From positions 522,515 to 586,514 of the forward strand of contig OZ316897.1 of assembly GCA_973895155.1 (NCBI GenBank): a DNA stretch of 64,000 nt, given 5' to 3'. The notes under the pieces were generated by a model. The model did no database searches. It saw only the letters and a program-made list of their open reading frames with translations, and was not told the DNA's origin. The position numbers and the translations under genes are program-made. The DNA comes from Marsupella aquatica. Lineage: Eukaryota; Plantae; Marchantiophyta. Numbering within the stretch: the stretch's first letter is position 1; every line of letters begins with the position of its first letter. This document shows positions 19,760 to 57,730 of this stretch, piece after piece.

Positions 19760-20806
19760 TCAGTACTGAAGGACGTCCTCTATCGTCCATGTCTCGTGGA
19801 TCGGAAGGGCGTCTGCTGACTTTTCCAGCACGTTGTTTATCTCTGCATCAATGTCGTCGTTCGGCGGCCCAATTGCCTGGACAGAATCCTTCGATCCAGT
19901 AAGAGTCATTCCAAGTTCACAGACGGACGCCCATTTCACCTCGACATCTTTGTATTTGATGGAGAATGACTTTTCCATTCTGCCTTTGATGGTAGCTTGG
20001 CTCTCTGGAGATTCAACGGGGGCGCCGAAAAGGATCTTTCTCACAACGGTCCACCCATCCATTGTGATCGGAGCCTTGCCGATGCTTGCATTGGCAGTGA
20101 GCGCGGGAACATCCTCGGACGCAAGACCAGCTGTCGCCTGCCTATTCGGTCGAGTAACTTGGGTCAACCAATTTCCAGTGTGGGGCTTAAAGGTCGTTGC
20201 GTAGAAGTATTCCTGCATGGAAGTGGGCGTGGTAAGATCCTGGCATTCGCTTGGTGTTTTATCGGCATGGAACATCTCTCCGGTCTTCACGCCTACCTCG
20301 TACCACCAATACGCGTTCTCTACCGGTTGGTATCGAGCTGTGGAACCTGGGGGAAGAGCAGTTTCGTCAACAAAAATTTTGTCGTAACCCCCGTCGCTGT
20401 TCTGGACGCCCACAACGACATGGATGCCGCGGATTTCGTCGGACTGGTAGTCGACCTTGCCGACACGCATGAAGCCCGGCATGGGTCGTGTTTCGGAGGT
20501 GACCCAGCAACCGGTATAATCGAGATCGAAAACTTGGCCTTGGTTACATTGCTGCCAGTTGCCTCCAAGATGGACTGAGACTCCCTGATGTGGAACTTGA
20601 GCCGTCCAGTTCAAGGCGTAAACTGCGTTCCATTGGATGGAAATATTGGGGGCGGCTCGCTTCGATTGCCAGACTGTGTTGAAGGTTGGAAATCCATCAC
20701 CCTTGGCTACGGATTTGGCGATGTGGAAGTTCCACGTATTCGCATAGATATATTGAAGTTCTTCTCCATTCTGAAAGACTAATATTTCGCGTACCGGGTC
20801 TCCCAT
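19760..20806 (-). CDS. 348-aa beta-rich uncharacterised protein of a fungal/bacterial-type family (candidate horizontally acquired gene)
   Basis: Intact intronless ORF; motif string HIAKSV...FNTVWQS...ISIQW..VYALNW...GQVFDLD..G...IFVD...P.E...WW...KTGEMF recalls a family I know from ascomycetes and bacteria; TATA-like tataagaa at ~20976-20983 (-). Confidence 0.75.
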   Translation of the reverse strand: MGDPVREILVFQNGEELQYIYANTWNFHIAKSVAKGDGFPTFNTVWQSKRAAPNISIQWNAVYALNWTAQVPHQGVSVHLGGNWQQCNQGQVFDLDYTGCWVTSETRPMPGFMRVGKVDYQSDEIRGIHVVVGVQNSDGGYDKIFVDETALPPGSTARYQPVENAYWWYEVGVKTGEMFHADKTPSECQDLTTPTSMQEYFYATTFKPHTGNWLTQVTRPNRQATAGLASEDVPALTANASIGKAPITMDGWTVVRKILFGAPVESPESQATIKGRMEKSFSIKYKDVEVKWASVCELGMTLTGSKDSVQAIGPPNDDIDAEINNVLEKSADALPIHETWTIEDVLQY

Positions 20807-20989
20807 ATCTAGTGACTGGCCGGAATGAGGACAAGCTGCAGAGAGTGAAGTATAAACTTATCGATCGATTGCCAAATTACTGGTAACGGAAGGAAAGAGT
20901 TGCGATCGAGTAGCTAACTAGTAGCGATGTGGACTGAAGCGGATGGGTGTGCTGGACATTGCACTTCGCGCGCCCTTCTTATACTTTTT

Positions 20990-23092: not shown

Positions 23093-26000
23093 TATTAGAC
23101 TCTACCTGGTGACCGGACGACTGGACCAGCCAGTCACCGGACCGGCACCACTACATGTACCAAACACCACAAACTATACATTATTCATTCCATTCTCACA
23201 CGTTATCAGCACGAGGACTCAACCAGCGGAGCGAAGGAGAGAGAAATAAGAAACTACGAAAGATAGAGCAATCGGAAGCGGCAGATGGTGTAGAACCTAA
23301 ATTGAAAGGGATCAACAAAGAAAAACAAAGAATCCATAAGGACACCGATCCGGACTCATTGGATGAGAATTGAGAATCATAAGAAAAATTGATAAGGCAG
23401 AAGAAGTAGAAACTGGAAAACTAAGAAGGATCGAAAGGAACACATCAATCGAGAGAAGAACGACAGCATCGAAAGGGAAGCACACAAAGGCGGCCCGAGA
23501 GCGCCCATTGAATCACGAAGAATTCACACAAAGGAGGCCTGTAGCATCAAACGAGAGATGTGTGCTCACGAATAACTCAGATGAAGCATCGAAGTCTACA
23601 AACAGAAATGAATGCAAAGGAATAGCCTCCCGTGATCGGACCTAGTAGCGCCCCATCCCCATCGCAAAAGGCGCAATTCAGATTACCACAAAGATTGAAG
23701 GAAATGACAGAGAGCCCTGGATGAAGAAACGATAGTCCTCGACCCTGGATGAAGCGAAAGTGTCCGATGCCTTGCTGGCTGAATTTTAGACTGCCAGTGA
23801 CGGGATGGTGGAAATTGCGCAAACAAAGGAGCAAGGTGAGAACAAATTAACTTAGACAACAAGGATCGATGATGCAAAAGGGAAAAAGAGAAGGAAACAT
23901 GGGCGCATGGTAGAGCCAAATGTTTTTGCTGAGGTTACGAGAAGCGAGCGATTCCGAACGTCGCTGATACAGACACGAGCCCTTTCGAAGATCAAAGTAA
24001 GAGGGCCGCTAGCAGCAGGAAATAAAGACAAGCACGGATCATAAGAAGAAGGTCATACATCGGCGCAGAGACGAAGCCTCCTAAAGATGCAGAAAAGCGA
24101 AAGAGCGACCGAGAAGGGGGCACTGCGAAGAACGATTCTTCCAGAAGATCATCGCGAGGGGACTTAGAAAGAAAAATCTTGATTGCCATAGAGAAATTTT
24201 AAGAAGGAGACGATCGAAGACAATGAAGGAAGCAGCCCAAGAGTAGAGGTCGTGAGCGGACACAAGAAAAAAGCGCAACAATGGCTCAAAAACATCGAGA
24301 GAACGCCGAATCGAGCCAAACCCGCTAAGTGCACGCTCCATAACCGCACATAACCGCAAAACCCTCTTTAATTGCAAAATCTGTCAAAGAGATTTCATTT
24401 ACAAAGCAGAAAGTGCACTTAACCATGTCACAAGTAAATTACCACCTATAACTGCACAAACTGCAAAACCTCATTACTGCACAGCTTAACAAAGGAAAAA
24501 GATAATACAAGGGAAACCTTGCAGTTATACATTCACAAAGAAAACCAACTTCATAAGTGCAAACTCTAAATTCTGCAAAAACCTGCTTTACTCACCAATG
24601 ACCTAGATTGCTCTCATCAACCCTTTCTCCACCATTGCATGCGGCAAATGTGCATTGTCTTTTGACTATATATATTATATATAAACACGCACACCACCGC
24701 TGCACGCCAGGACCTTAGAGATGACCAACCTTGAGAAACTCACCTTCCCCGCCCTAGAAATAGATGGCGGCAACTACCTAGAATGGTCCATGAACCTAAA
24801 AGAAAACCTAACCTCGCTAACCCTACTCCCCGCGATAGGGTCACTCAACCCACCCTTGCCGGCGAACCACAACCAGACCCATTAACTAAAGCCAACGAAT
24901 CAAAAGCCCTAGTATTCCTGAGACGCCATATCCATAGATTCCTCCAGAGACAATACATGCACCTATCGACCCCTCGGGAAGTATGGACAGCCCTACAGAC
25001 CCGATTCGACCACCAGAAACTGGTCGAATTACCTAAAGCCAGGCAAGACTGGCTAAACCTGCGAGTCCAGGACTTTACCTCTATTTCAGCCTACAATAGC
25101 GAACTCTTTAGAATAACCTCAACCCTTGCACTATGTGGCGAGCCGGTCACAGACAAGGATCTGCTAGAGAAGACCTTGTCGACATTTCATTCATCGAATG
25201 TGTTGCTATCAACACAGTATAGAAACATGAAGTTTGGGCAATACTCCGAGCTCATAGCCCACCTCCTAGTCACTGAAAGAAACCAAGAACTTCTTTTAGT
25301 AAACTCAAGAAAATGCCCTGCAGGCACACTGCCCTCAGGACAAGGGAATGAAACCCATAACATAGAAAATGCTGAACCCTCCACATCGAGGCAAGGCATT
25401 AAACGCACTAAGAATAGCAACCGGAGAAACACCCACAACAGGAGGAGTTTCTATAACCAACGTCCACAATATAACTCCCAATGAACCTTTCGAGGACGTG
25501 GAGGACGTGGTGGACGAGAAGGACGAGGAGGACGAGGAGGACGAGACGGATGTGGCGGACGTGGAGGACGTGGCGGTGGTAGAACATATAATAACAACCG
25601 TAGAAACGACTGGTCACAATCCCGACAACAACGGGAACGACCGAAATGCCATGAATGTGGCATGACAAACCACCTAGCGAGAAACTATAGAATCCCGCAA
25701 CACCTTAGAGAACTATATAAACGGTCCATCCAGGATGGACAAACCTCAAGGGCACCACCCTATGAAACCCACAGGGCGTTTATGGAGTCTAGTGATCCAT
25801 TCCAAGACTTCTCAGACCTACCCGCCCAACCTGAGGCACACTTAGTGGCAAGTAGCTCCACTACACCAGATTTAAATAGCCCAAGCACATGTATTATTGA
25901 CAGTGCGACCACGCATACTATCCTCCGGGATAGGCACCTTTTCCACATGATTACACCCTCACGTAGGCCCCTGACCACTATCAATGGTCCTAGCCAAATA

Positions 26001-29000
26001 GAAGAGGGCTTCGGCCTAGCTTCTATTACACTCCCACAGGGTACCGAAATACACATAGAATCTGCTATTTTCGCCCCGAACGCGACTCATAATCTCCTCA
26101 GTTTTAGAGATATACGAGCAAATGGACTACATGTCCAAACAGGCGATACCAGAGACCAAGAGGTCATTCACTTGGTTGACAATACCCCTACGGGGAAAAT
26201 CATTAAAGAAACCCTTTTCTCGTATCCTTGCGGGTTTTATGTAACTCATATTGAATGCCTGCATAATAATGCCAACACAAGCGAATTGCACGCGCTCTGG
26301 CATGCACGCCTCGGCCACCCCGGCCAATCAATGCTAACCAAAATCATTAAGAATTCAAGAGGCATTCCAATCAATACACGCCACATTCCAGCGAGCACTC
26401 CATGCACTACATGCTCACGCGGAAAATTAATAACAAGGCCCACGGCATCAAAATTGCCAACTAAAATACCCCAATTCTTGGAAATAATCCATGCAGATAT
26501 TTGCGGGCCAATCAATCCACCAAGCGGACCTTTCCGCTACTTTATGGTATTAATCGACGCATCAACTAAATGGTCAAATGTGACCCTGCTTTCAACGAGG
26601 AACATGGTTATGCCTTGCATTTTGGCACAAATCTTGCGCGTGAAAGCACAATTCCCAGATCACCCCATTAAGACACTCGGGGTGGACAATGCAGGGGAAT
26701 TCACATCCAAAACATTTGACAACTTTTGCACATCACTTGGCATTGACGTACAATATCCTGTACCTCACGTGCATTTTCAGAACGGATTAGCTGAAGCGGT
26801 CATTAAACACCTTCAGTTAATTGCACGCCCATTACTAATGCAGTCAAAACTCCCTGTCTCAGCATGGGGACATGCCATATTACAGGCTAATGCATTAATC
26901 CAATACCGCCCATCGGCTTTTAATATCTATAGCCCATACCAAATTGCTAATGGTATTAAACCTGACCTATCATATCTTCGTTCATTTGGATGTCAAGTAA
27001 TGGTCCCCATTACTCCACCCAAACGAACCAAGATGGGACCCCAACGGCAGTTGGGGATATACATCGGATTCGACTCACCGTCCATAATTCGATATATAGA
27101 GCCTACAACTGGTGATGTTTTTAAATCTAGATTCCTAGATTGCCATTTTGATGAAAATGTTTATCCACCGTTAGTAACCACTAAACACCCACAACCACCT
27201 TTGGAGTGGGAAAGACATTCGCCATTTTGGCAAGACCTTTGAACCAATCAAGGGGAGAAAGAAGTTTAAAGAATTTTACAACTCCACAAGATTGTGGAAG
27301 AACTTCCCGACGCTTTCGTCGATACATCACAAGTTAGCCGCTCACATATTCCAACTGCGAGAGTACCTGCTCGCATTGAATTATCAAATGAGCCAGCAAG
27401 TACATCCCAACCTCGTGCCAAACGTGGCAGACCTTTGGGATCAAAAGATAAACAACCACGAAGGTGTGGTTCATCTATACCACCTTCACCTGATGTCGAT
27501 CATACCGAATCTACATCCCATGAAGAGATCTCTATCCACTACGCACACACAGGTGCGATGTGGGATAGAAATACTACTTCAATAGATGATGCTTTTGCAT
27601 TAATGGTGGCAACACATATCACTGACAATACACCCAAACCAATATCTATCTTAGAATGCCAAAACAGACCAGATTGGCCTGAATGGCAAAAAGCTATAAA
27701 TGGAGATTTAGATTCCCTACTCAGCAGACACACTTTTGGCCCAGTCGAGCCAACATCGCAAGACGTACACCTAATTGGCTACAAGTGGACATTTGTCCGC
27801 AAAAGAAATGATAAAGGCCAAGTTGTACGCTATAAAGCGCGTCTGGTAGGGAAAGGATTTACACAACAACCGGGAATCCATTATGATGAAACCTATTCAC
27901 CGGTTATGGATAGCACAACATTCCGATATCTTATCGAATTTGCCATTTTCCATCAACTACAGATGCGACAACTGGATGTTGCAACTGCATATCTATATGG
28001 CACTTTAGACACTTGTCTATACATGCGATCACCTCCTGAGTTGGAGCAACGACGCCGAGCTTTAGCTCAAGGCGCTAAATCGCATATTCCATATTTATAT
28101 AAGATTATAACACAATTATCTCAAGTTACACCTGATGTGTCATCTACACATGTAACTCATAATAACGACACCGCTGTGTCAACCGTACGGAATACTCACC
28201 GCGGACTAGCTATCTACGTGTTGAAGGCATTATATGGCCTAAAACAAAGTGGCAGAGTATGGTATCAAAGATTTACTGATGAAATGATTGCCATGGATTT
28301 TTCCCATGATGCCATTACACCATGTTTATTTATTAAACATGTGGATGACGAATATGTCATCGTTTCTATTTATGTTGATGACTTAAATATATTTGGGACA
28401 CCCCAACTTACAGAAGATACTATTACCAGTCTTAAATCAACATTTGAGATGAAAGTCTTTGGACATACAAACTTTTGCTTAGGCTTACAACTAGAGATCC
28501 TACCCACTGGCATGATGCTCCATCAGACAACACAAACTGAAAAGATCCTAAAACAGTTCAATATGAACCTAGCACACCCATTGACGTCACCAATGGTTGT
28601 ACGTTCATTAGAAAACAATACTGATGTTTTCGCAAGCGCGAAGAGCATGAACCACTATTAGGACCAGAAACCCCATACCTTTCCATGATAGGAGCATTAA
28701 TGTACCTAGCAAATCAGACTAGACTAGACATTGCATTTGCAGTTAACTTACTAGCCAGACATAGTGCAACTCCCACAGCCAGACACTGGAACGGAGTTAA
28801 GCACGTATTTAGGTATCTGCGTGGCACTACCGATACAGGGTTATTTTACCCATTCGGTGCAAACCACGAGCTCATAGGATATGCCGATGCCGGATATCTC
28901 TCCGACACTGATACCGCAAAATCCCAAACTCGATATGTTTTTACTATAGGGGGTACCGCTTTTTCTTGGAAAAGCGTGAAACAGACCCTAACAGCAACCT

Positions 29001-29829
29001 CATCAAATCACTCAGAAATCTTAGCTCTACATGAGGCTAGTCGTGAAGCCGTTTGGTTACAATCCTTTATAAACCACATCAACACCAAATGCGGCTTACC
29101 ACCACTAACGAAGCCTACTAACATTTTTGAGGATAACGTAGCATGTATACAGCAGATCACAAAAGGATTCATCAAAGGCGATCGCGTGAAGCATATAGCT
29201 CCGAAGTTTTTCTACACCCATGAGTTAAATGGAAAAGAGATCAACATTTTGCAGATTTCAAGTGCAGACAACTGTGCGGATCTCTTCACCAAATCACTAT
29301 CGCCATCAGTTCACCACAGACACTGCCAGGCGATTGGACTACAGAGCGTGCGACGCATGATGACCGTGGAGGCTGCTACTCCACATGATACTTGATGATG
29401 CTGACGACATGATGCTGATGATATGCTACTGACGACCCACTATTTAGACAAATGTTTTAACTAGATTTACTATAGCATCTAACTTTATCCAATATTGACA
29501 TTTATTACGACGAGGAATGTTAGGCTGCACTCTTTTTCCTTTAGCACTCATATTTTTCTCTGCTACACTGGTAGAGTTTTTTACTAAGCTAGAGTTGATA
29601 AAGGTTTTTTAACGAGACAGTCTACCTCGCTTGTACTTATATCATGTATTTTCTATGAACATGATATAATAGGTATAGTCTATGTTGTCTATATAGTTGT
29701 CACTATATATCCAAAGGGGAGTATTAGACTCTACCTGGTGACCGGACGACCGGACCAGCCAGTCACCGGACCGGCACCACTACATGTACCAAACATCACA
29801 AACTATACATTATTCATTCCATTCTCACA
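23093..29829 (+). mobile_element. Full-length Ty1/Copia LTR retrotransposon, Bianca-like lineage
   Basis: 108-bp LTRs 23093-23200 and 29722-29829 (2 mismatches, TA...CA ends), TSD tatgg (23088-92, 29830-34), PBS cgttatcagcacg at 23201, PPT ccaaaggggag 29711-29721, domain order gag-PR-INT-RT-RH. Confidence 0.97.
24721..29395 (+). pseudogene. Copia gag-pol, disrupted (frameshift near 24790, stops at 25482, 27240 and ~27267, frameshift near 28640)
   Basis: MTNLEKLTFPALEIDGGNYLEW gag start, RGG tract, decayed zinc knuckle, IIDSATTH protease, WHARLGHP and HADICGP integrase, YKARLV/LYGLKQSG/YVDDL RT, YADA/SEILAL/EDN/ADLFTK RNase H. Confidence 0.93.
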
Positions 29830-31633: not shown

Positions 31634-34543
31634 TGTTGACCCTGGTTTGAACTCTATGCAAGAGCCCAAGTCCACCGTACATGGCGCGTTAGGTCATGAA
31701 TCCTTCAATAAACATCTTTACGTGTCATCTACTTGTGGATGCACTACACGGTCTGTAAGTTTTTCTTAAGTCAGAGTAAGTTTTTCTTGAGAGAAACAAG
31801 CTGCAGGCCTGGACATTGCGTTGCAGAAATGCGGTGATACTCACGGACGCACGCAGGGATGCACGTTAGTACTTGTAAGTTTTTCTGTCGAAACAAGCCC
31901 AGACATTCAGAGAAACAAGCCCCGAACATCGCGCTGCTTAATTTGGTGTTACCTTGTTTTTTCATGTTCGATATTCAGCTTGTCGTGCGCATACACATCG
32001 CTACACAACATACATCACTTATCACATACATCCAGACATAGTCACACTGCCACATCACAAACATAAGAGAATGGAATACAAGTGGAACTCATGTCCACAC
32101 ATGTCCAAAACCCATAATAATCTCAATACAATCGGCACAACGATCCCGGTCCACAATACCCCATCGATCCCGCACCGATCTGATCACACATGTATGTCAA
32201 GCCAACACACCTTGCACTACTCAAGGAATCCACGTTACACAAGCGGAGCTCACAACCACCATAGCCACACTCAAGCTCCTCTCTCTCCAAGGCTTAACAT
32301 TGAAAGATGACCTTTCAATGCCTCACAAATGAGAAGTACCCTCTCACACAAACCTGACGGAACCTTATCGGCTCATATAGCACACATACCAAACATACGG
32401 ATCTAGATAGTATGATACACTCTAACACTACCTAGAATGGTGTGACAACTGTCGTGCGCATACACATCGCTTGTCACATATATCCAAACATAGTCACACT
32501 GCCAAATCACAAACACAAGAGAATGGAATACAAGTGGAACTCATGTCCACACATGTCCAAAACTCACAATCGCCCCCCTAGCTGGGAGTAAGGTCCCCTA
32601 ACTCTAGCTAGCCATGAGTTCTATAAGGTTGATATACACCTTTTTAAGTGTGAAGATCAGGAGGCCGGGTGCAAGTGAGCCCCATCGATCATCTACTTGC
32701 AATCCATATCTGCCAAGAGAACACAAATGATAACTAGTCGGCTTCACCGACACTGAGGACACAACCATGATCCACTAGGAATCACCTACAATGGTGGTGT
32801 CAAACATGACATGTGCCATCCTCTAGAACACTTATCACAAATCAACATAGTAGCTGCTCCTTGAGCAGATCAACACAACATACATTTCAAGCCAGCACGA
32901 ACATGTGCCAAGCTTGGATCTACTGTACCATCAATGTTGGGAAGGTGACATGGTGCACAGTTGCGCACATGATCCTTCCAAACCATACCATCGCGTCCCT
33001 CCAACATCAGGACACCAGAAGGCAACACTTCACGCACACGTAAGATTGTTCGGCCTGCGGTCACATCAAGTGTTGTGGGTGCTGTCTGCTGCAAATAAAT
33101 ATAATCACCAGGATGAAATCGTCAAATGTTTGCATGGTAACCTCCTCCACGAATAGTGGCATACCTCAAAGTATCATGATGTTGGGCAATGGCAAGGTTG
33201 TCAAAAGCCATGGGCATCACTCTCTGAAATACCCGTGCTCTCTCTGAACACACCTTGACCCAAACTTAAATAGGATCATCCAAGTTCACAACTGGTGCAA
33301 CATCACGACGAATAGCTGCTGGCAAATCTGGCTCTCTACCATAGAGCAAAAAGTAAGGTGAGAAGGATGCAAGTAATGTTTGCCAACTGAAATGGTAGCC
33401 CATAGCTAACCAAGGTAGCTGGAGATCCCAATCTCCCAGATGACCAACCTGCAAGCCATACTTATGCAATCCTCTCTTCACAGTTTGCACAACTCTCTCA
33501 GCTAATCCATCTGCCTCAGGATGATCACGAGAGGTAGTACGATGATCAATCAGAGCTTGTTCACACAAACTCTCAAACTCTCCACGGAACTCAGTTCCCT
33601 GATCAGTCAACACCTCAGCTGATGCTCCAAAATGACTGAGTACACGATCCAAAAATGTAGCAGCAACTCCTCCACTGGCTTTATCTAGCAACGCCACTAG
33701 TTCAATTGGAGAAGTGCTCCACCATGACCAAAACATACCGATTATGACGTTGGGTAAGAGGTAATGGACCAGCAAAATCCAAACTCCAACGATATCCCAA
33801 ACCCATGATCGGCAACGGGTGCAACTAGGGAGTGGGAGCATTAAATGATGCTCTCACTCTATCACATACCACACACTTAGCTATCAACTACTGGACATGA
33901 GTGTGCATAGTTACCACGCCACCAATACTGTGTTTGCAGCAAGCTGTAAGTGCACTTCACACCAAAGTGACCCAACTCCTCGTGTACATGTCGCACCAAA
34001 TGTACTCGTTGTGATGGTTTTGGTACCACCAATACCCTACCATCATGCAGTACTCTCAAAAGATGGTTTCCCTCCCATCAAAACCTCTTGGCTCTCTGTA
34101 GAACCCTGTCACGTTCTTTGGCATCAACATTGCCAACAATAGAACCACTACGCAGATATTCGAACACTCTCACATCATTATGAATATCTTGTTGTTAAGA
34201 AGTTACCTCACCAACATCCACATCTGAAGACTCATCATCCACTCCATCCAATGAGATAGAGTCCACAGATCCACTGTATGCTGGCACCCAACAAAGAAAG
34301 GCAGATGCATGCCATCCTAGCACCATCTCCTTATCTGACTCATCATGCCATCTGGCTCTAGTCTCATCCTGCTAACTGGTACATGGGTTGCGGCTCAACC
34401 CATCTGCATCCAAGTTCACCTTTCCAGGTCTATGTACAACCTGGAAATCATATTCCTACAACAACAATGCCCATCTTGCAAGCTTCCCAATGAGCTTGTC
34501 AGACTCCATTGACCACTTGAGAGGATGATGATTAGTGATCAAA
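31634..34543 (-). mobile_element. 3' half of a Ty3/Gypsy element: RNase H C-terminus, integrase, C-terminal PHD finger, PPT and ~935-bp 3' LTR (~31634-32568)
   Basis: LITNHHPLKW...GKLARWALLL...NLDADGLSR, HEELGHFG...YWW, VLTDQGTEF, DGLAERVVQTVK, FSPYFLLYGREP; PPT aggggggcgat then TGTGAG at 32568; probable LTR end ...GGGTCAACA at 31634 (less certain). Confidence 0.9.
32744..32884 (-). other. PHD finger (C4HC3) at the Gypsy integrase C-terminus
   Basis: CMLC*SAQGAATMLICDKCSRGWHMSCLTPPL*VIPSGSWLCPQCR*, continuing the frame of ORF 32870-33094. Confidence 0.9.
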
Positions 34544-35299
34544 CACTACTACATATTGGCCCCTTTTGCGAAGCTTTTTTTTTTACGCCGGGATGGTCTT
34601 GCGATGTCATCGACTTCAGATATTTTGTGATCAAACACGCATCACAATAAACCATGCTCAAAGGTTCGCAACATGGTGTTGCGAAGCTAAATACCTCGCA
34701 ATTTTTTTGAGATTGGATTGAATTCGCAACTCTTTCAGATACTATTCGTCTCGCAAAGTGTTTGTGGATCCGCAACCATCGCGACTGCATTTGGATCTCT
34801 TTTGTTTCATAATTTAGCGATAATAATGTACTCAAATATATCTTGTGAACCTATTAGCTTCGCACAATATTGTGAAGTATAAATAGTCGCAAGTTACCGA
34901 AGCCAGTTGATTCGCAAAGTTGAGAACCCATTGGCATCACAATTACCGATGGTGTGTTATTCACAAAGTGTTTAGAAGTTGCTTCTTGACAAGCTTGAAA
35001 ATGTTTTGCAAAGAGAGTTGTTTGAAAATTTTGTAGAATGGAAATGTTTGAGAGAGTTTCTTTACAAGATGGAGAATGCATGTGTTTAGGTTACAGCTAG
35101 GGTTTTCAAAAAGGTGGCATGCATGAGGATAGCTTTGGAAACGGCTAGGGTTGCCTATATAACAGTGAGATGAAATTTTAAAGTCCAATTAAGTGTTTGT
35201 AAAACAAAAGAAGAAAATTAATATGTTAATATAAATAAAACCATGATAGTTAGTTTAGGGTCAAATTCTGGGCCCACAACAAGTTTTACTACTAGTGCA

Positions 35300-38200
35300 T
35301 CAAACCTGGTCCTCATCCTCTCCTCCATTTGACACAATAATAACGTCAGGTTTTTCCGAGATAATGGAACGGGACCGTGGCACATACGGTATAACAACTG
35401 ACCACTCTAGGTCTGGTGGGTACGGAATATAGAAACACTGCTCAAGGTGACTTGGGAATGTAAATGGTTCAAATGTTTGCCAATGAGATGGTTGAAAGCT
35501 AGTTGCTGATGTCTTCCGAGTAAACCCACACTCATCAAGAAGTACCGTGCGATTATCACCAACCAGGTGAATTTTGAACCACTTACACTTGAAGACATAC
35601 TCTTCAAATTTGGAATCGGCATCATAGGATATGATCAAGATCTCCTCAATCTTCCCATAGTGAGGCACCACATCTCTGATCACATTAGTGTCATGACGGC
35701 TACTTTGTGAATCTTGCATGAACTGCCCTTGAACTCCACAATCAAAAGTTCTTCCCCTCTTCTCATCAAGGTCAGAAATCCTGAAATGCCTCCCTTGTGT
35801 CCACATTGCTGTTCTGGTCTGAACAAGTCTTAAAGGACCATGAACAATTGTTCGAACCTCAGGAGTCATATCTGGAAAATGTGATACATTCTCACCTTGG
35901 GCCACCATAGCATCCAACTGAAGTACTTTCTCCTTCATATACTCAAGGAACTTTGGAAAGATCCTTGGGCGACGACTCTCCCTCTTTGCATCCTCATAAA
36001 ACTCTCTCCAATCTTCCATCACATTGCTGTTACTCAACATGAAAGTACTAACCTGTGTCAACTCCACTGCGGTTAGTAAGCGTGTTTTTTTTGCACCTGT
36101 TAAACGGTCCTCCTCCACTTCCCTCTCTTCCATCCAAGTGCGTGGACAACTAGGATCAATGGTAGCTAAGATGTTACTACAATAAAACATACTCTTAGCT
36201 GCCAAGTATCCAGTTGCCATGCTCCCCTCCACTCGTGCATGGTTCCGTACATAAGCCTTTAACACGGCCATATACCTTTCCAGCCAATACATCCACCTAC
36301 AATGCACCGGACCGGCAATGGCAACCTCCCTCACAAGATGAACGAGAAGATGCACCTGACAATCAAAGAAGGAAGGAGGGAAGGCCTTCTCCAACTTGCA
36401 TACCACCTTTGCTGCCAATACCTCCATCCGTGGTATCTCAGATTCTTCATATATTTCCTTTGAGCATATCCATCTCAACAAAGTGCCCAATGACCAAAGG
36501 GCGTCTTGCACTTCTTCACTCCCCAAACCTATGATTGCCACAGGAAGTATATGTTGTAGTAAACGATGATAGTCATGTGTCTTGAGATACATTGGCCATT
36601 TATGACTGTCCTCCATCCCAAAAGCCTTACGTAGATTGGCACCATAGCCTGTAGGAAACCGCATCTGCCCTATGCGTTGTCGAAACTCTCTTCTTTCACC
36701 AACACTCAAAACCCATGGAGCTGAAGGACGATGTTCCATCCCTGTGGATTCATCAACTGTTATCCATACATCTGGATGTCGTTCTAGATCCTGGCATGCC
36801 TCCCTAAAATTAATGTTCTTTTCCCCATAAAAGTGCTTGATCAAAGCCTTCCCAACATTTCCCTCTATATGCATGGGGTCTAACAAGTGATGAATCTTCA
36901 ACTCAGGCCAATAGGGCAAAGTGGCCAGTATACCCCACCTTGTCAATCCACTACCATAAAATCCCATGGCATCTTCAGGGTCTGCCACCCTATCAGCTAC
37001 GGATTTCCAATACAAAAATGTTGTGCGGTCAGGTATCTCACGCTCATCACCATTGATCATGTCAAAGTTTGAAAACAAAAGGGGGTCAGACCTCATGTGA
37101 TGCCCAAGTGGAAGAAACTTGGTATGACCAAGGTAGATTATCTTGTGCAGCCATTTTGAGTACTTGGCCATATCGTGAAGGCTTGGACCACAAGTGGAGC
37201 ATGCCTTGTACCCTTGAGTTTGGAACCCAGAAACAAACCCAAACCCTGCTCACAAAATAACATTCTCAATTAGCGTCAAAGGAATTGAAAAGTTCATGTA
37301 CATAGAATTAAAGAGGGACTTCCTTCCAAACAAACTTGATCTCCAATACATGAAAAAAATACAAATCCATACCACTCACTTGGATAGTCATGCATGGTCC
37401 ACATAATGATTCCCTTCAATTGGAAGACACGTGGTAACCCTCCTGTAGTTGTCCGACCATCATATGCCCATACACCCCCCCATAATTTATGGAGTTCCCC
37501 AACCAAGAGCGCCAAGTAGGTGTCCATGTCTTTTACCTTAGATGGACCTGGGATAATCAATGATAGCAATAAGAATCCCTTTTTCATGGACAACCATGGG
37601 GGAAGGTTGTAATTCATAACAACCACCGGCCAAACCGAAGTAGGGCGCCCTTTCCCTCCAAGGGAGTGTGGGCTTACCCCATCTGATGCCAACCCCAACC
37701 TCACATGACGAGGGTCACGTGCAAATTCTGGCCATTGTGACTCCACATGCTTGTGAGCAGGGGAATCAACTGGCAACCGCATGACACCAGCCTCTGATCG
37801 ATGTGTCTTATGCCATACCATCAATTCTGCCAAGTCAGAACATCGGTACATGTGCAACAATCGAGGAATAATAGGAAACCAACGAACAGCTTTTCTAGGC
37901 ACCTTTGAGGTCAACATGTTGGTTTCATATCGAGGCTCTTGACAAATTGGACACTCAGTTGCGCTGGCATTGGTCTCATGATAGAGAATGCAATCATTCA
38001 CACAAGCATGAATGATATGGTATTCCATGCCAATGGATGATAGAACCCTCTTTGCCTCCTTCCAAGTTCCTGGCAACACATTTTCACTAGGTAACAAGAG
38101 ATCATGGCAAATTGCAAACAAATCCGATAGTAGCGCATTGCTTGCCTTGTGTTTTGCCTGAAGATTCATCAATGCCAAGATGGCAGATAGTCTATTCAAA

Positions 38201-39726
38201 CGAGCACCCCCATAAATAGGTGTTCTAGCATGTGCCTCAGCTTCTTCCCATTGTTTTTGTCCTTCAGGTGTACGTTGAGGCCTTGGATCATGTGCAACAT
38301 TTGGTGGAGGGTCTCCTTCATTGGGTGGGACACCTCCTTCACCACCAATGTCTACACCAAACCAATCTGTCATGAAGTCATCCATGGCTGACTCTTGGTC
38401 TTGCATGACCTCATAATCTGTCCGAGGTGCCCCTTCATCTGGACTGTCATTATCATTGTCACTTGATGAGGAATCTGCTGATGATGTTTCCCCATCTTGT
38501 GGCAAGCCCATTTCTTGATATGTAGCTCTCAACCTCCTTGGCAACATATCTTGACTAGGCCGCACATTCTATAGAAAATACAATAAAGTATTCACAATGA
38601 AATTAACGCCAAATATAGTAGTGCTCGAAACATATTATTAACAATATAAAAAGAACATGTCATTACAAAACATACGTTCACATACGATGAACGTATAATA
38701 CATGTCCCTAAAGTAATCCTAATCCCATTCATAATGTGTAAACAACTCCTCTCCAACCAGAATGGTCCTATTAGCTACAACTAGACAATGGTCATGATGA
38801 TATCTCTGCCCATAAGGGGCTGGAGGGGGACCATCAACAAAAACCCATTCACAGTTTTTCCTACGCTTAGGCCGGGTCCCCACAGTACTGTTGATGAAAC
38901 CGGCAATATTCCCACTACGGATGGGATCACCATCAATTATACGCTGGTCACAATACTTTCTGGTGCAACCATCAAAAGTATCCATGTCCAATGCATAAGT
39001 CTTCCACTCAGGGTGTCGAACTCTTGACAACCCAACGTCTTCCCCAAACTTCTATCTCCTCACCATAGGTTATATCACATGGCAAACCAAGGCACTCCGG
39101 GTTCCAATCCTTTATGATAGGAACACACTTCCCTGTGAAGGTACAAGGGCCCCATCTACCATCAACCCTACAAGTGTACTGATCCACTTCCCCTCTAGGC
39201 TGTCTTTTTGACCTTTTTTTTCCCTCTTGTAACAATACCGTCACCCTGAATTGTCCCAACACTACCTTGCCCTGCTGCCACTAAACAAAAAGCTTGTGAA
39301 AGTGCCGAGCCTATAGCATCTAGAACTCCTTGTGAGGGAACATAGGGTGTTGGTGTAGTGGGTGTAGGCCTACTAGATACCTATAGGAAGAAATGGAACC
39401 AAGTGAGTGTGATGAACCTCCCAAATTTTATTTTATGCTACCTAGCAAGATTTACAAAATAAAATGGAAATCACAGTAAGTTTACAACTCACCATACGAG
39501 ATGAAGAAGCTCCCGGTGTAAGACCTCGATGTTGGCCATATCGAGCAATGTGCTCCGCACATACATATGACTTTTGGACAACCATCCCCACACATTTTTT
39601 ACAACCACAAAGTTGGCGTGGTGGACCACTAGGTCGACGTACGGTTGGTTCAGGTTGAGGAGGAGGATGACTTTCTTCATCGGAAGAGGAATCTGATGTG
39701 GTGGAAGTTGTAGAGGATGAAGACAT
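35300..39726 (-). CDS. CACTA TnpD-like transposase (Transposase_21 + DUF4218 + DUF4216 type); exons 39726-39493, 38568-37380, 37245-35300 (~1122 aa)
   Basis: IHACVNDCILY, ECPICQEPRY, RHVRLGLASDG, NYNLPPW, MHDYP, GYKACSTC, LDPMHIEGNV, LKTHDYH, HLLVHL, RWMYWLERYM, FKCKWF; GT-AG junctions restore one continuous frame. Confidence 0.9.
38719..39280 (-). pseudogene. SET-domain exon of CACTA copy A (155-bp internal deletion)
   Basis: IDGDPIRSGNIAGFINS...KNCEWV...LVVANRTILVGEELFTHY; deletion relative to copy B positions 62985-63139, bounded by gttcgac/gttcaac. Confidence 0.8.
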
Positions 39727-40159
39727 CTGACAAGTATAGCAATTGGAAGGCGATTAGTAAAAACTTCACCAAAACCATCATTGATAATCCCTACCTAAAC
39801 ATATTAAAAAGAATTGACAGAAAAATACCTTTATGAGACCCGGGCTTAGCAATGCCTTGACGGATCTTGTGGCTCAAATTTCATGAACCAAATTTGGAAG
39901 GAGGGGAAAATCTGCCAATATACAATGAATTAAGCCATGCCTTATGGTGAACCAGAAAAAAAGGATGATAGATTGTAACCCTCCATATTTACAGCAATGA
40001 CTAGAAATGCATGAGAAAATGTTATACCTTTCAGATGCCCGGGCTCTCGCAAGGCATTATCATGCATTAGCCAAAACTTTAAAAAATATGGGGAAGTGCC
40101 CTACAACGCCAAAGAGTTTTCCTCTCCATGTTAATGAGATAGACAAAGAAATATAAGTA

Positions 40160-41100
40160 ACCCAAACCCTACCCTAAACCCAAACCATGAAATGAAACCC
40201 TTCATTAAAACCTAACCCAAATCCCTCAATCACCCTAAACCCTTACCCTTATCCTAACCAATACCCAAATCCCTCATTAAAAATTCAAACCTTTACCCTA
40301 AACCCAAACCCCTACCCTAAACCCAAACCATGAAATGAAACCCTTCATTAAAACCTAACCCAAATCCCTCAAGCACCCTAAACCCTTACCCTTATCCTAA
40401 CCAATACCCAAATCCCTCATTAAAATTTCAAACCTTTACCCTAAACCCAACCCAAATCCCCCAATTACATATAAAACTCTTACCCTATCTACACCTTACT
40501 TTACCTATATAGGCCAACCCCCACCCCTATAGTTATTCTAAACTTCACCCTAACCCCTAAATTGAGGCCCTTTTTTAAAACTTAAGCAAAAATTGTACCC
40601 CCTCAATTAGAACCAAATCCAACCCTATATCATGTTACACCCCAACCCAAACACTTACATTAGAAACCCAACCCCTTTAAAAAAACCACAATTAAACCCC
40701 CCAACTAAAAACCAAACCCAATCCCTTTAAAAAACAACCACAATTCAACCCCTCAACTAAAACCAAACCCAACCCCTGTAATTACTCACAACCTAATGCA
40801 AACCTCTACCTTGAACCCTAAGCCAAACCCATTAATTTAAACCCAACCCTTTTATTCCAACCTAACCCAAGTTTTAACCCCCTTAATTAAACCAAATACT
40901 CCTAGATTAAAACCAAATATAAACCTAACCTTTAATTAAACCCAAACCTTTGTTAACTTATATTCTAGTTATCCTTACAACCCAAACATCCATTGACACC
41001 CCTTCCATGTTAACTTATGGGCACTTAACATACCTTAAATGTCGTTTGACAAACCTTAATAGCCGTTTGACACCCCAAAGTGTTTTCCAACCCTAAACCG
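40160..41100 (+). repeat. C-rich degenerate telomere-like (CCCTAAA/AAACCC) tract between the divergent CACTA genes, with a ~143-bp duplication
   Basis: Dense aaaccct/ccctaaa/aaacccaa motifs; mirrored in copy B at ~60900-61840. Confidence 0.8.
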
Positions 41101-41443
41101 ATAAGACCTGCCTCGCAAATTATTTCACAAGTTAGAGAATATTTTTGCGAACCTACGACCTTCGCACTTGCTTCGCAATAACAGAGGCCGAGAACAATTT
41201 TTTGGGTCTTCTGCGGGTTGCGATGGCTTTGCGAAGGGAATAGATTCGGAAGTGCCTCGCAAGTTGCGAGACTATTTGCGAGGGCACGGGCTTCGTAGTT
41301 TCCCATGCGTATGTCATTGCAAACCCGTTTTTGAACGGCGTAAACATCGGCGGGAGCTCGCATTCGGGCTCATTTCAGTTTTTGAGCGAGACGAGAAGGG
41401 CCGGGGCGCAACAGTACGAGGGAGACTGTGAGAGAGGGGAGCT

Positions 41444-43489
41444 ATGGCTACCGGTGAGGGGAGTGGAGGGCAAGGTGGTAGTGGTAGTGGTAGTGGCAAT
41501 GGGGGAAATCCAGAGAATGAGAAGAATGCCTGGGCAGACTTAGTGGCCCAACATCTCAGTGCTGCACAATTGGGAGAAGTGAATCTCAATTCTCCAGCAG
41601 GGCTTGCCTCTTTGAGTGCCATTCTTGGACAGGTTTTGCAAACTGGGATTGTAGCAGGACAAGCTACTAGAGAGGGGGAGGAGAGGGCCGCAGCTGAAGA
41701 GAAGGCTAGAGAGAAAAAAAGGAAGAGAGAGGAAAGAACTAAGTCGGGAGTTGCCTCTCCTCAAGCCCTAGAGAAGCAGAAGAGAAGAGAGGAGAGAGAT
41801 TCAATTCGAAAACAGAGGGAGGAGCAACGTCAGAAAGAGGAAGCAAGAAAAAAACTTCCATTCATTGCCTTGGAGACGAGTGGGACTCCAACTGAGCTAG
41901 CATATGCAGGGGCTAAGAGCACAATCAAGCAGATTATCACAAGCAATTTCTCACGAGGCATGCAGTGGGGGAAGATTGAGAAGGCAGAGCGAAAGAGGGT
42001 CATCAACCAAATCAAGGATGCATTTTGCAATGGGCCTGACATAGATGAGCAATGGTTGGCAGATAAGATTTCAAATTCTATGTCTCAAATGCGATACCAT
42101 GACAGGATGAAGATTAGAGCCCACCTGAAAGACTTGAGATCATACAGGAACTTGCGCAGACCCCTCCACTTCACCGAGGACATCTGGAATTTGTTTTACA
42201 AGATTGAGGTGCAAATTAAGGCAGCTCACGAGTTGGAAGAGTGGAAGGGCAATCTAGATCGAGCCTTGAAAGCAAAGGAGGCCGGGAAGCTCCCCCCTAA
42301 CCACGACCTGAAGCCACTTGAGCAGAAGGTAGCTGAGATGCAGAAGGTGGCCGACCAGGAGGGAAAGCCACCCAAGCGTTTCACAGATGCAGCCAAACGA
42401 GTGAAATCCACCCCCAATCCAGTCCACAAGTTGGGTCAAGGCGGGCTCCCCGGCCTCAAGACACACTTTGTGAGTGCCTCTTGCTCCTCCCTAACCTCTC
42501 TATTCCTTTCAGAGTTGTGCAATGCAAGTGAATGACATCCCCGAAGGTTCTTGCTGTTGTGCATGCTTGCTTGGTTACTAGTTTAGGGCAACTCTGACAC
42601 TTAGAATTTCTGGCAAATTTTTAAAAACTCTCGGGAACACATTTTGCGAAGGTGTTGCGATGCGTATTTGTTCGCAAACCCCTCGCAAAGTCTATCATAG
42701 ACTTTTTCCATTTCAATTTTCCGATGCCTTTGCGAACAAATATGCATCGCAAACTCCATCGCAACGCCTTCGCAAAAAAAGGTGGTTCGCAAGTTGCTAT
42801 GCTTATAGGTTCGCAAATTTGAATTTTAAATTTTTTTTGGGTCATGTTTAGTAGTTGAGGATTTAGGCGTCACTTGTGGCTATAGGGTATGCTTAAGGGC
42901 AAATTTAACCAATTTTAATTGGTTTTATGCATGGCAGTATCGGAGGTACAAAAGGAAGATATCAAAAAAGCATATTGAGGTGGCGATAGAGCATGGACGA
43001 AAGTACCTCTTTGCGATGGTAGATGCCGAGTTGGCTACTGTAAGTGTCTAAGTGTGAACCATATGATTAGCATGCGAACATTGTGAGTGACCCTTTATGT
43101 CTTGCGGAAACTAATGATATGTAATGGATGCAGGATTCGGATGAGCCTGAGGGGTCGGGTGCTGATGTGACCAGTAGTGATGACGATGAGGGGGCTACTC
43201 CTGGTACTAGTGGTGCTCGGGGGGGAGTAGTCGTGAGGTAGGTTCTTCCCACCGTGGTAGTGGTGGTAGTCGTGTGTCATCAGCACACGTTGATGACCAG
43301 GGGGAGGAGGAGGACCCTGAGGATGAGGAGGAGGAGCAGGAGGGGCAGGAGGAGCCAGAGGAGCAGCAGGAGCAGGAGCAGGAGCGCCGACGGCCATCAC
43401 GCACCCGTCACCAACAGGATCCCCGGAAGGATAAGGGCAAGAAGCCAGCCAAGAAGCCAACCAAGAGGAGCCGCAAGAGCCCATTCTAG
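41444..43489 (+). CDS. CACTA accessory (TnpA/ORF2-like) protein; exons 41444-42469, 42938-43039, 43134-~43489 (frame break at a G7 run ~43219-43225)
   Basis: Coiled-coil N-terminus, W..I...ER....I helical region, HKLGQGG motif typical of En/Spm accessory proteins, GT-AG junctions, acidic/basic tail. Confidence 0.7.
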
Positions 43490-45233
43490 TTATTTTGTAG
43501 AGATACATGCATGAGAGTGACTTGTCATGCCGGAGCTTAGGGTAGGAAGAGGCAGCATAGGTTTAGAAGGGCGGACCTAGCATCAGATATTTCCCCCCTC
43601 TTGTCCATGTATAGGGTTCTTTGAAGCCCTATCATTTTGTTCATGCTTTTCCATTTTATAAAACAACAATTTTGCCTTCCACATTGGGTTCCAAGGAAAA
43701 CCCCTCGCAAATAATGTATTGAATCCTGTGTGATCATAATTTTGCGAACCCTTTAAGAACTCATTCCCATCGCACAATATTAACCCCAAGGCGTCGTACT
43801 TTTTGAGTCAATTAACTTCAGAACTTCAGATCCAAATATGTTGGGTTTTTGTGATACTTCTAGGATCGCACTTTCCTAATCGCAACCGTTCACAAACTTC
43901 TGAAATCACCGGTATCGCTCTTTGTCATACAATCCCCATCAAAACAATTGAACCAGTATCAATCGCAAATATGATGCGATGGTAAATCCGTCTCAAATAT
44001 TGACGCCCACGCGGGACGTGTGCGTGTATGTTTGCGAACCTTATGCGACGTATAATGGATCGCAGAAGTATTGAATATTGCGAACCTCTCAGCTTCTCAG
44101 TTTGCCATGATGTTGCGATGCCGTTGCGATGGTCCGCGTGCGAAGTTATTAGGTTCGCAAAGTGCGAAGGGGGTGCGATGCGCGTATGTTCGCAATAGCC
44201 AGAATTATGAAAATCAGGGGCTTGTTAGTTGTGATGAGATTGTCTTCGCAAAACGGGCCGATAGTGTTGTAGTGGATAACAATTTTTGGGCACTGTATTT
44301 TCAATGAGAACTGGGGAAATATCCCAGCACATACTTTAGATTAACAAAAGCACTGGGGAGGAACCTCTGGCCGTAGACAACTGATGGTCCTGTGTGTCTA
44401 CAAAGCATTGTAACAAAATGAGGTGGCTACTTGAACACTACTGCCAAAGATTGGGTCCAGCAGGAAGACACTATCGTGGTGTCGCTTCAATCCTCCCACC
44501 AGCTCGGCTTGTATGCGTCGGAGTTGTTGTTGGAGTCGCTAGAACCAACGCCCCAGCGAAACCCACCCCAGTTGCCAGACGAGTCATCGGTCGACCCCGA
44601 GTGGTCGCTCTGCTCCTCCTCCTCACCCAAAGAACTTTTGGCCGGGCCATGTGACAGATGGGAGGTCAAAACCTTTGCCATTGATCTAAGGAGAATGTGC
44701 GCTGAGGGTGGCACCTCCACTTTACACTGAAAAGGAGTATTTGCAGTCAAAGGAGTCGGTCGGGTCTTGACGATTGCTTTCCCCTTGGCCGTGATCGGGA
44801 CTGCCATTACTCGAGTTGAAGGCATCGCAATGGCCTTCTCCAAAGCGCCTTTGCTAGCAATCTTGCTAGCAAAGGTCACCTTTCCCTTCCCCTTCGCTCA
44901 TGGCGGAGCCATCAGAGTAATCAAAAGTTCACCCTAAACTCCTCAATTGAAAGCGGAGCGGTGAGCGGAAATGTGAGCAGAGTGCTTTGTGCAAACAATT
45001 GTGACAGAGAGAATGAGAAATGAAGGGCGGAAGAGACGGCCAACTGGTTTTGGAGGCAAAGCTCAGGCGTTCCGAAGTGCATATGGATGTCTGAGATGCA
45101 CCGGGAAAGACGACTCATATGCATCGGCCGATATTTGATATCTATTGTGCGTGACAAATTTATTGTACACGTGCGAATTGGGACTGAGTCATGAGTTCCG
45201 TATGCACAGCCAGCCAGGACATATTCCGTACAC

Positions 45234-49459: not shown

Positions 49460-49930
49460 TCAGAAGTTAATCAGGAAACTGTCGTCGACCGACCCAAAAT
49501 ATTTGGGCGGAAATAATGATCCAACAACAGGATCTAAACAAGCATGAAATGCATCGGATTCGATAAGCATTATATTTTGCTGTAGATACACCTTCGTATA
49601 AATTCCAACCTTCTCAAAACACTTCAAAAATATCCGCTTATTTGATGTCACCCCATCGCATAAGTAACAATGAGACTGATCCCAAATATACTTAAATGAG
49701 GCCATTTCCATCGCAGTAAAAATAGATGCTAAAATTTGATCTAAAATGTTCTTCCCAAGAGAGGACCAGATCCCTACATCAAAATTCTCAAAACAGAATC
49801 TCAAGAATTCATGAAGATGAGGCCTTGGAAAAACGTATATATTCCCAATTTGAATTCCAGTTGAGACCGCCATCAGTCGGGAATGCGGTGCAGTGTAATA
49901 GAGTAGATGCTCCACGTCTAAAACTATGAG
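49460..49930 (-). CDS. NIF/FCP1-like (HAD) phosphatase-domain exon or fragment, probable TE cargo
   Basis: LDVEHLL...RPHLHEFLRFCFENFDVGIWSS...YIWDQSHC...FLK...NIMLI; the canonical DxDx(T/V) motif is degenerate. Confidence 0.7.
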   Translation of the reverse strand, partial: LIVLDVEHLLYYTAPHSRLMAVSTGIQIGNIYVFPRPHLHEFLRFCFENFDVGIWSSLGKNILDQILASIFTAMEMASFKYIWDQSHCYLCDGVTSNKRIFLKCFEKVGIYTKVYLQQNIMLIESDAFHACLDPVVGSLFPPKYFGSVDDSFLINF

Positions 49931-55678: not shown

Positions 55679-56210
55679 TTGTTAGGTGATGATCATCATC
55701 GGATTGTTGCCAATGTTCACCAGGTGAGGTCTTGGATTGGACCTGCTATGTTATTGGATGCTGCACGTGTGGGTTCTCATGCACATTGTCCACGCTTGTG
55801 GTGGACTAATCTGATCCCATGTGAGGTGCTGAAGCGCGCATTTGACAACATTCCACGCTCACCAGCCTTAGTGGTGGATAATATTTTGGATCCAGGACGT
55901 CGTGCACAAGGTGTGATCCAACCTGATAGACCTCCATTGGCAATGGTCAATGCAGTTGGGCACCCACGTTGTGCATTACTCACTCTTGTAAGCCACTTTG
56001 CTTCATATGCATTCAGAGCAGGTGGCCCTGGACTTGTGTGGGACACAGCTCTCCAGCAGTTAGTGGAACCTACTGCTGATGAGAGAGAGCATGCTATGGG
56101 ATTTTTGACTGGCACCACTATAGTTGCCTTTGTGCTAGAGGGTTTGCAGCGCCAGGTTCTTGGTCAAGCAATGGATCTGAATTGTTTGACTTGGATTATC
56201 AGCTTGGGAG
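55679..56210 (+). other. DNMT3/DRM-like C5-cytosine methyltransferase domain (motifs VIII-X) in the Gypsy pol frame
   Basis: LDAARVGSHAHCPRLWWTNL (motif VIII), EPTADEREHAMGF..GTT (IX), QRQVLGQAMDLNCL (X); same frame as RT ORFs 56441 and 56642. Confidence 0.82.
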
Positions 56211-57730
56211 TAGCTGAACAGTTGCGGATGCGCTCTACTGGAATTACTGATTGTCCCTTGGTGAGCTTGCGGTCCACTAAGACAGTACTGACCACAGCTG
56301 GGGGCAAGCAGACAGTCCATGGACCTATGGCAGGATTGGCCAAGGCTGGACAGATTGTTGAGCAGGAAGGGACTGCTCAATCTACTACTAAATAGCAATC
56401 ATCGGCTATCTCTTCTACCCTACAAAGAGATATTAGGGATTTGGTGGAGAGTTGGGAACCACAGCTTGGCCCTAAGTTGACAGGGGAGGAGAGACGTCGC
56501 ATGCATCGATTCCTGAAGAGTTATTGGAATTGTTTTGCATTTAGCATGAAAGATATGGGGACATTAAAGGGTCCTGGTATTCAGATTGAATTGGCTAGTG
56601 ATGCGCCAATCTTTCATATCTGACCATACCGTTATAGTGACATGGAGAGAGCTCTGATTCAAAGCAGAACTCAAGATTTGTTGGAGGCTGGATTGGTGGA
56701 GATTTCATATGGGGAGTATGCATCTGCCATAGTGATGCCAGCCAAGAAGGATGTGCATGGCAATTACACAGATAGGCGCATGTGTGGTGATTATAGACCC
56801 ATTAATCGCCAGACAAAATTTGATAGATATGCCATGCCCACACCTGAGGAGATCTTTGATGTTGTGGGGCATGCAAAGGTTTTCAGTTCATTGGATCTGA
56901 GGGCAGGGTACCATCAGCTTCCAATTAGGCATGCTGATAGGTCCAAGACAGCATTCTGGGGGAGTGATTCTTATGGCAAAGATCGTTTGTATCAGTGGTT
57001 ATTCTTACCATTTGGGTTGAAGAATGCACCAGCTGAGTTCTAGAGAGTCATGGATCGAATCCTTGCAGGTTTGGATTTTGTCAGATGTTATATTGATGAT
57101 ATTTTGGTCTATTCTTCTACTATGGAAGAACATTAGCAGCACTTGCAGATTGTGTTGGAGAGATTGAGAGCACATGGGTTGGAAACTCCATCCTAGCAAG
57201 TGTAAGTTCTTCCAAGACCAGATTGAGTATTTGGGCCACACTATATACCCAGGGGGATTGGGTGTACAACAAACTAAAGTGGAGGCCATTACACAGATTC
57301 CTTGTCCTACTGATGTGAGCAGAGTTCATGCATTCTTGGGATTGGCGAGCTACTACAGGAGGTATGTTAAAGGATTTAGCCAGCTTGCTAAACCTTTAAC
57401 CATACTCACTAAGTTGGATCAGGAATGGACTTGGGGTGATGACCAGGAGCATGCCTTTCAGGAGTTGAAGCAAAGGTTGGCATCATCCCCTATTTTGAGA
57501 AGACCCATTTCAGGCAGACCATTTAAGCTACACACTGATTGGAGTGGAGTAGGACTTGGAGCAGTGCTGACTCAGAAAGATGATGAAGGGCATGAGTTTG
57601 TTGTGGCATATGCCAGTAGATCAAACAATTCAGCAGAAGCTAAGTATAGCTCTTATGAGGGAGAGTGTTTGGCAGCAGTGTGGGCTGTGGCACACTTTCG
57701 CTGTTACTTGTTTGGTAATCCTTTCACTTT
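55679..57730 (+). mobile_element. 5'-truncated 5' half of the same Ty3/Gypsy element: C5-DNA-methyltransferase C-terminal part, RT, RNase H N-terminus
   Basis: RMCGDYRPIN, LDLRAGYHQ, PFGLKNAP, YIDDILVYS, FLGLASYYRRYV, LHTDWS, VAYASR, YSSYEGECLA; ends at FGNPFT|CACTA. Confidence 0.93.

Follow-up and report, generated by a model that had tools for sequence, protein, structure and literature searches.

Among the various retrotransposons described with chromatin-related domains, REM1 of Chlamydomonas reinhardtii carries a PHD finger and a chromodomain in a separate antisense ORF. In the same alga, Gypsy-7a_cRei holds a PHD finger within its Gag-Pol and is inserted intergenically 2.6 times more often than chance; the passage that describes it proposes a role of the finger in avoiding harmful insertions and adds that the intergenic bias may be selection (PMC9940879). 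KnitGypsy-Dnmt3 of Klebsormidium nitens contains a Dnmt3 inside the Gypsy Pol together with DIRS-like split repeats, and the available text calls it an acquisition of the K. nitens lineage (PMC5890265). The repeats are written as A1...B A2 B in the available portion of the review file of that paper, and the element is named 'Gypsy-DNMT3' in the accessible part of a preprint, which treats the capture seen in EpiLTRs as distinct from it (10.64898/2026.05.21.726589). Retrotransposon PHD fingers have been called widespread and linked to targeting (PMC6673714, available passages), and fusions between PHD fingers and transposons are catalogued in the available parts of PMC8557442 and bioRxiv 2021.11.30.470311. 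As the accessible passages stand, guidance of retrotransposon insertion by PHD fingers has already been proposed in print (PMC6673714, PMC9940879).

In the present study, we analysed a stretch of 64,000 nucleotides from the liverwort Marsupella aquatica (contig OZ316897.1, positions 522,515 to 586,514), which is called the window here. A first-pass annotation had described a complete C4HC3 PHD finger directly after the C-terminal region of a Gypsy integrase, and our results confirmed it. When positions 33853-32744 of the minus strand were translated with stops read as X, all eight ligands were found at 32884-32750 in the pattern CMLCX...CDKC...GWH..C...WLCPQC. The search of this read-through translation that the annotation had proposed gave a Pfam PHD (PF00628) match of 39.4 bits (cut-off 24; E 6.3e-10), over profile positions 1-47 of 47. 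A chance origin was ruled out, as the window contains the strict pattern a single time and 200 triplet-shuffled windows do not contain it at all. The finger and the fragment of the integrase core (rve, E 4e-4, below the cut-off) are read in one frame, and the finger lies past the SH3-like tail, at the integrase C-terminus as annotated. Its frame closes at the stop 32744-32746, about 165 nt ahead of the polypurine tract (32570-32579); the order relative to this tract was therefore annotated correctly, but the supposed LTR behind it is a split B-A-B repeat. Just ahead of the finger, at about 32950-32965 (minus), a nearly invariant NCAPCHLP motif was noticed, which could add metal ligands.

The finger had been said to be hidden by two stops. 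Two do lie within it (32870-72 and 32786-88), but two further stops separate it from the core (33266-68 and 33122-24), giving four internal stops in all, and the integrase is frameshifted near 33705 and 33910. In the part of the tables available for sister-contig run X1, the three point stops are read otherwise by 99.5%, 98.6% and 87.5% of the depth, and at the fourth stop place 88% of the depth lacks three letters; at all four places most sister sequence of runs X1 and X2 carries another reading, where listed. Since sister sequence is mostly free of stops at these places, the stops represent decay of the window copy. With four stops, upstream frameshifts and a CACTA insertion and inversion, this copy is a dead element.

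Table 1. Parts of the Gypsy element and of the inserted transposon in the window
Feature	Position	Strand	Basis
Terminal repeat B2; 3' end of the element at 31981	31981..32118	-	Sister contigs with diverse loose ends at 31981
Terminal repeat A2, starting with TG; B1/A2 junction a CA-NN-TG palindrome	32119..32447	-	Repeat comparison
Terminal repeat B1, ending in CA	32450..32569	-	Repeat comparison with related loci
Polypurine tract	32570..32579	-	Motif shared by most related loci, 3' of their PHD
PHD finger C4HC3, two internal stops, frame end 32744-32746	32750..32884	-	Read-through translation and Pfam
SH3-like integrase C-terminal beta domain (approximate limits), stop 33122-33124	32968..33154	-	Mapping of intact relative P0152; strands in model
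Integrase catalytic core (approximate limits), frameshift near 33705	33370..33908	-	Pfam and P0152 mapping
RNase H 3' end, linker and integrase H2C2 zinc-binding region	33913..34542	-	tblastn with P0152 residues 431-643, 61%
CACTA/EnSpm transposon, inserted in RNase H	34544..44274		Second copy, inverted, from 57731
DNMT3-like domain, C-terminal half, motifs I-VI absent	55679..56314	+	63% to L027 ORF residues 192-403; 42% to Klebsormidium P0180
RT and 5' part of the RNase H of this element, in opposite orientation to the INT-PHD half	56447..57730	+	Pfam and mapping of relatives

The element is broken into two halves. The 3' half (end of RNase H, integrase, PHD, polypurine tract and repeats) runs at 34542-31981 on the minus strand, and the 5' half (DNMT piece, RT and start of RNase H) at 55679-57730 on the plus strand. 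A matching 3-bp duplication is present on both Gypsy sides (57728-30 and 34541-43), and two CACTA/EnSpm copies (34544-44274 and 57731-64000), inverted and 95-99% identical, flank a 13.5-kb segment. In the unbroken sister contig X11, compared by eye, position 34543 is followed by sequence that matches the 57.7-kb end. The split Gypsy halves indicate that the 13.5-kb segment between the CACTA copies was inverted, and we infer that CACTA first inserted into RNase H and that an inversion between its two copies followed. No gag, protease or 5' repeat (A1) was found in the window. The annotation had also suggested that the element encodes a reader and a writer together. This is borne out by the relatives, as 33 of the 120 best of 277 integrase matches hold both domains, but not by the window, where the DNMT piece, of which the C-terminal half alone is present, is separated from the finger by 23 kb and is encoded on the opposite strand. 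The window copy has no functional reader and no functional writer.

Several other features were observed in the window. The first CACTA copy contains a SET-domain fragment (38719-39051, minus; Pfam E 1.7e-5), which is another chromatin-related domain in a transposon, and the matching region of the second copy (about 62700-63400, plus) has no Pfam match. The inverted segment carries a Cys/His-rich transposase-like frame without Pfam match (46214-47662, plus), a NIF phosphatase fragment (49460-49933, minus) and a RING-like frame (54041-54931, minus). Elsewhere there are a Ty1/Copia element (24735-29395, plus) with 109-bp repeats at 23092 and 29721, and intron-free frames for an ERGIC-type protein (9319-10515) and a cysteine-synthase-like PALP enzyme (14033-15505), both on the plus strand. 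The region 16940-20857 holds a frame of 365 residues (19760-20857, minus) without Pfam match and a diverged tandem copy of it about 2.5 kb upstream.

For the family analysis, residues 470-900 of P0152 were used as a PHD-free query in order to avoid selecting PHD fingers, and the best 120 of 277 matches were analysed; an earlier search with the window tail had given 104 relatives. Among these 120, a PHD lies 137-164 residues (about 152) past the core in 103. Of the 17 without it, 14 stop within 190 residues of the core and three are longer with no detected PHD. In none of the 120 was a PHD found ahead of the core, and the chromodomain (PF00385), which is the hallmark of chromoviruses, is listed for none. 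A DNMT match is present in 37 of them. Intact copies had been named beforehand as the place where the fusion could fail, and in P0126, P0150, P0152 and P0153 RT, RNase H, integrase and PHD are read in a single intact ORF; P0178, P0199, P0249 and P0261 hold DNMT, RT, RNase H, integrase and PHD in one ORF by Pfam. The spacing from core to PHD is nearly constant, the PCH motif just ahead of the finger is almost invariant, and the proteins of the window subclade end 0-14 residues past the PHD. The fusion of integrase and PHD is the rule of the family.

This arrangement was also seen in 80 metagenome loci, which include repeats of the same insertion and were collected with a query that contained the PHD. 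The order PR-DNMT-RT-RH-INT-PHD was constant wherever sequence was present. Relative to the SH3 part, the PHD is in frame in 66 loci (19 of them stop-free), frameshifted in 4 and absent in 10, of which six are contig ends, three have room for it and one lacks the SH3 part. As the stops in 47 loci are scattered, no stop shared by the whole family separates integrase from PHD, and a host PHD gene adjoining the element was ruled out by the relatives with integrase and PHD in one ORF and by the fixed position of the PHD among relatives. The order PR-RT-RH-INT and the best solved match, Ty3 Gag-Pol (E 2.6e-98), place the family in Ty3/Gypsy, and the best solved matches of its methylase are DNMT3A/B. 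The nearest named matches are from Marchantia, Calypogeia, Riccia and Sphagnum, and relatives were found in liverworts, Sphagnum, Klebsormidium and volvocine algae. Several Marchantia gene models named 'PHD-type domain protein' (Mp_2g13720, Mp_1g18210, Mp_5g07880, Mp_8g07960 and others) are integrase-tail fragments of this element.

A quick integrase tree was built from 123 rows, six of them added and 117 taken from the 120 after three short sequences had been omitted, with midpoint root and SH-aLRT as the only support value. The window falls in a clade of 17 rows (SH-aLRT 99). A second clade of 61 rows (SH-aLRT 99), with Volvox, Tetrabaena and Enallax, has the chlorophyte-type order RT-RH-DNMT-INT-PHD, in which RNase H and integrase are separated by the DNMT3-like domain (P0199, P0210, P0219, P0246 and others) and a tail follows the PHD. 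In the part of the tree with bryophytes, Klebsormidium and Closterium, the DNMT stands ahead of RT and the PHD is terminal; the window and the Klebsormidium members, among them P0180 (DNMT-RT-RH-INT, streptophyte-type), share this half of 51 rows, although its fork is weak (SH-aLRT 76). In P0238 and in P0224, whose single ORF spans protease to PHD, the PHD is retained and no DNMT could be detected at the position their clade uses for it; this indicates that reader and writer need not work together. Descent of the family from the green-plant ancestor would be vertical, as we infer. In chlorophyte-type tails (P0072, P0234 and others) a conserved beta-rich domain was noticed 3' of the PHD; one such tail matches the PTM/DIR17 Tudor family below the cut-off (E 1.3e-5), which suggests a PHD-Tudor pair, and the ESM Atlas gave no usable match for the chlorophyte-type tail.

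Purifying selection on the PHD is shown by codon-based estimates, obtained as pooled Nei-Gojobori dN/dS from 56 deduplicated copies of 71; the pairs depend on one another and dS is almost saturated. With these limits, the ratio for the PHD was 0.30 between the window and the main group (45 pairs) and 0.15 between the far and the main group (360 pairs), with the core at 0.09-0.10. Inside the main group it was 0.64, the highest of the domains tested, and decay dominates there.

The solved sequences closest to the finger are CHD4, KMT2C/D, DPF3, PHF12, ATXR5, PHF21A, MOZ, KDM5 PHD1, UHRF1 and BAZ2, and several of the best matches are reported as K4me0 readers (PMC5415848, PMC6979384). In the AlphaFold model of Marchantia P0004 (mean pLDDT 71.5, above 80 in the PHD part, pTM 0.41), the PHD overlays those of BHC80, DPF2/3 and ATXR5 at 0.5-1.2 A, and the PHD is not confidently packed against the SH3 part. 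Residues were counted in 90 strict-pattern fingers among the 122 proteins examined. The tryptophan of the H3K4me3 cage is placed two residues ahead of the histidine, and at this position Gly is found in 86 of the 90 fingers and Trp in none. Because the cage tryptophan serves in the reading of H3K4me3 (PMC5415848) and none of the 90 fingers has it, the finger is not an H3K4me3 reader. Its resemblance is to fingers that read the H3 tail in unmodified form. An Asp follows C3 in 84 of the 90 fingers, and the Met located three residues ahead of C3 is retained throughout. At the acidic-wall position (Asp/Glu just before the first strand, aligned via DPF3), the window PHD has Ala, and Asp/Glu are found in 0/15 fingers of the window subclade, 7/24 of a second group and 15/51 of the chlorophyte type. 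The window subclade likewise has no acidic residue two positions ahead of C1, and its median net charge is +2, versus -5 in the chlorophyte type. BAZ2, UHRF1 and DPF3 use the acidic wall that is missing from the window subclade. In one screen, H3 binding was seen for only 31 of 123 human PHD constructs (PMC6979384). Judged by sequence, the chances that a window-type finger binds H3 appear about even.

The ends of the relatives have the order A1...PPT-B1-A2-B2, in which the element runs from TG to CA and B1/A2 form a CA-NN-TG palindrome. The arrangement is complete in L003/L080, L028 and L063; the window has B-A-B and lacks A1. An exact 4-bp target duplication was found in 8 of 10 distinct insertions with both ends, three of the A...BAB form (L003/L080, L028 and L063) and five of a repeat-less A...B form (L014, L015, L024, L048 and L069); in the other two, the duplication matches at 3 of 4 positions (L042) or not at all (L062). 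DIRS/Ngaro elements have a tyrosine recombinase and no target duplication, and such an identity was ruled out by the DDE integrase and by the exact 4-bp duplications in 8 of the 10 testable insertions. B was found upstream of the 5' A in none of 20 loci, and no tRNA-type primer site was apparent downstream of A1. The 11 nt past A1 are complementary to a segment of A in each of the 15 loci tested, with 9-11 of 11 positions paired, and in 8 of the 15 this segment lies 23-31 nt behind a TATA-like motif. The pairing score, which as the best of five offsets favours the observed value over shuffles, was reached by at most 2 of 200 shuffles in 9 loci and by 11-23 in the weak L003, L048 and L073. Such complementarity just past A1 is present in L003, L014, L028, L042 and L062 among others, and L062 belongs to a subfamily of quite different sequence in which the pairing is kept. 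The A2/B2 join consists of the end of A and the start of the post-PPT sequence, as expected of a circle junction; one- and two-LTR circles would thus have been integrated through the B/A junction. The A...B forms could instead result from recombination between B1 and B2. At the 3' ends of L009, L019 and L022, an inverted part of A was seen after B-A, in place of B2.

A role of the finger may be proposed from what is established here: its fusion to the integrase at a fixed position, conserved between green algae and bryophytes, the purifying selection on it, the PHD fold and the lack of the K4me3 tryptophan. The finger would stay on the mature integrase after cleavage of the polyprotein and would bind chromatin, probably the unmodified H3 N-terminus; in this way it would tether the integration complex to nucleosomes and shift site choice away from H3K4me3-marked promoters, and the DNMT would be a separate cargo, likely methylating the cDNA or the new copy. 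We hold the case for such a tether to be evenly balanced, since the acidic wall is missing in the window subclade and so few human PHD constructs bind H3. A lesser but serious possibility is that the finger works with the integrase and not as a reader of the H3 tail, by binding DNA, either nucleosomal or of the donor, or a protein of the host, or by supporting the unusual complex that cuts at the internal B/A junction. The basic charge of the window subclade without the acidic K4 determinants, the near-constant spacing from the core, the almost invariant PCH motif and the unusual ends of the family would fit it, but algal members keep an acidic KDM5/UHRF1-like face, the Asp and Met residues near C3 are retained, and the P0004 model has no confident PHD-SH3 packing.

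It seems improbable that the finger serves the element's own DNMT3 in place of the ADD domain, which has this role in animal DNMT3, and directs methylation rather than integration. The joint presence of both domains in the 33 relatives and the position of the chlorophyte-type DNMT directly ahead of the integrase speak for such a partnership; RT and RNase H intervene in streptophyte-type members, however, and P0224 and P0238 do without a detectable DNMT. The view that the finger was captured from a host and contributes nothing to transposition is largely refuted and very improbable. Although the window copy is broken and three of the best 120 of 277 relatives pass the slot with no detected PHD, the position is fixed across about 45% integrase identity, the ligands are conserved, dN/dS is below 1, and the stops at four places are decay of the window copy. 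Returning to the tether, a wider picture can be drawn, in which a Gypsy clade as old as green plants joins a promoter-avoiding PHD integrase that reads unmodified H3, a DNMT3 writer whose position shifted between chlorophytes and streptophytes, Tf1-like self-priming and circle integration via B/A; as a whole we consider it rather unlikely. If it is true, integration of circles at B/A yields both A...B-A-B and repeat-less A...B copies, which are missed by LTR finders.

Each ingredient of the element has a published precedent. The term 'PHD' is absent from the available text and three supplements of PMC5890265, where Fig. 4c may show a PHD, and it was not found in the available passages of REXdb, Novikov 2012 and Craig 2021; the available parts of PMC6317226, PMC3350952, PMC8226300 and bioRxiv 2022.05.23.493040 do not mention a fusion of integrase and PHD in Gypsy-DNMT3. 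No paper on a bryophyte clade of this kind was found among the openly accessible papers and preprints listed. Split repeats of this type would fail the paired-LTR filter that, in the available text, underlies REXdb (PMC6317226). The Dnmt3 inside the Gypsy Pol and the split repeats are common to KnitGypsy-Dnmt3 and the element here; whereas the former is presented in the available text as an acquisition of one algal lineage (PMC5890265), we found relatives also in bryophytes and in chlorophytes, where the DNMT has moved, and the clade extends Gypsy-DNMT3 from one alga to these groups. Gypsy-7a_cRei is alike by description in its PHD within Gag-Pol and differs in that no DNMT is named in the passage on it (PMC9940879). 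EpiLTRs and CopiaMBD also carry an epigenetic reader and/or writer in an LTR element; in the parts available, the former are described with a chromodomain, DAM and a DNMT4-sister enzyme (10.64898/2026.05.21.726589) and the latter with an MBD (PMC6673714), unlike the PHD and DNMT3 found here. The complementarity past A1 resembles the self-priming of Tf1/Sushi and Tcn1, as given in the available part of PMC6317226. Like the element here, chromoviruses (MAGGY, Tf1/Sushi, Tcn1, Chlamyvir) carry a chromatin-reader fold at the integrase C-terminus; compared with them, it has a PHD for the chromodomain, split repeats for two full LTRs and a DNMT cargo, and targeting is demonstrated for chromodomains whereas that by the PHD is putative. 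If the finger does guide insertion, it would provide a second reader-based route of targeting besides chromodomains, which is testable in Chlamydomonas or Marchantia.
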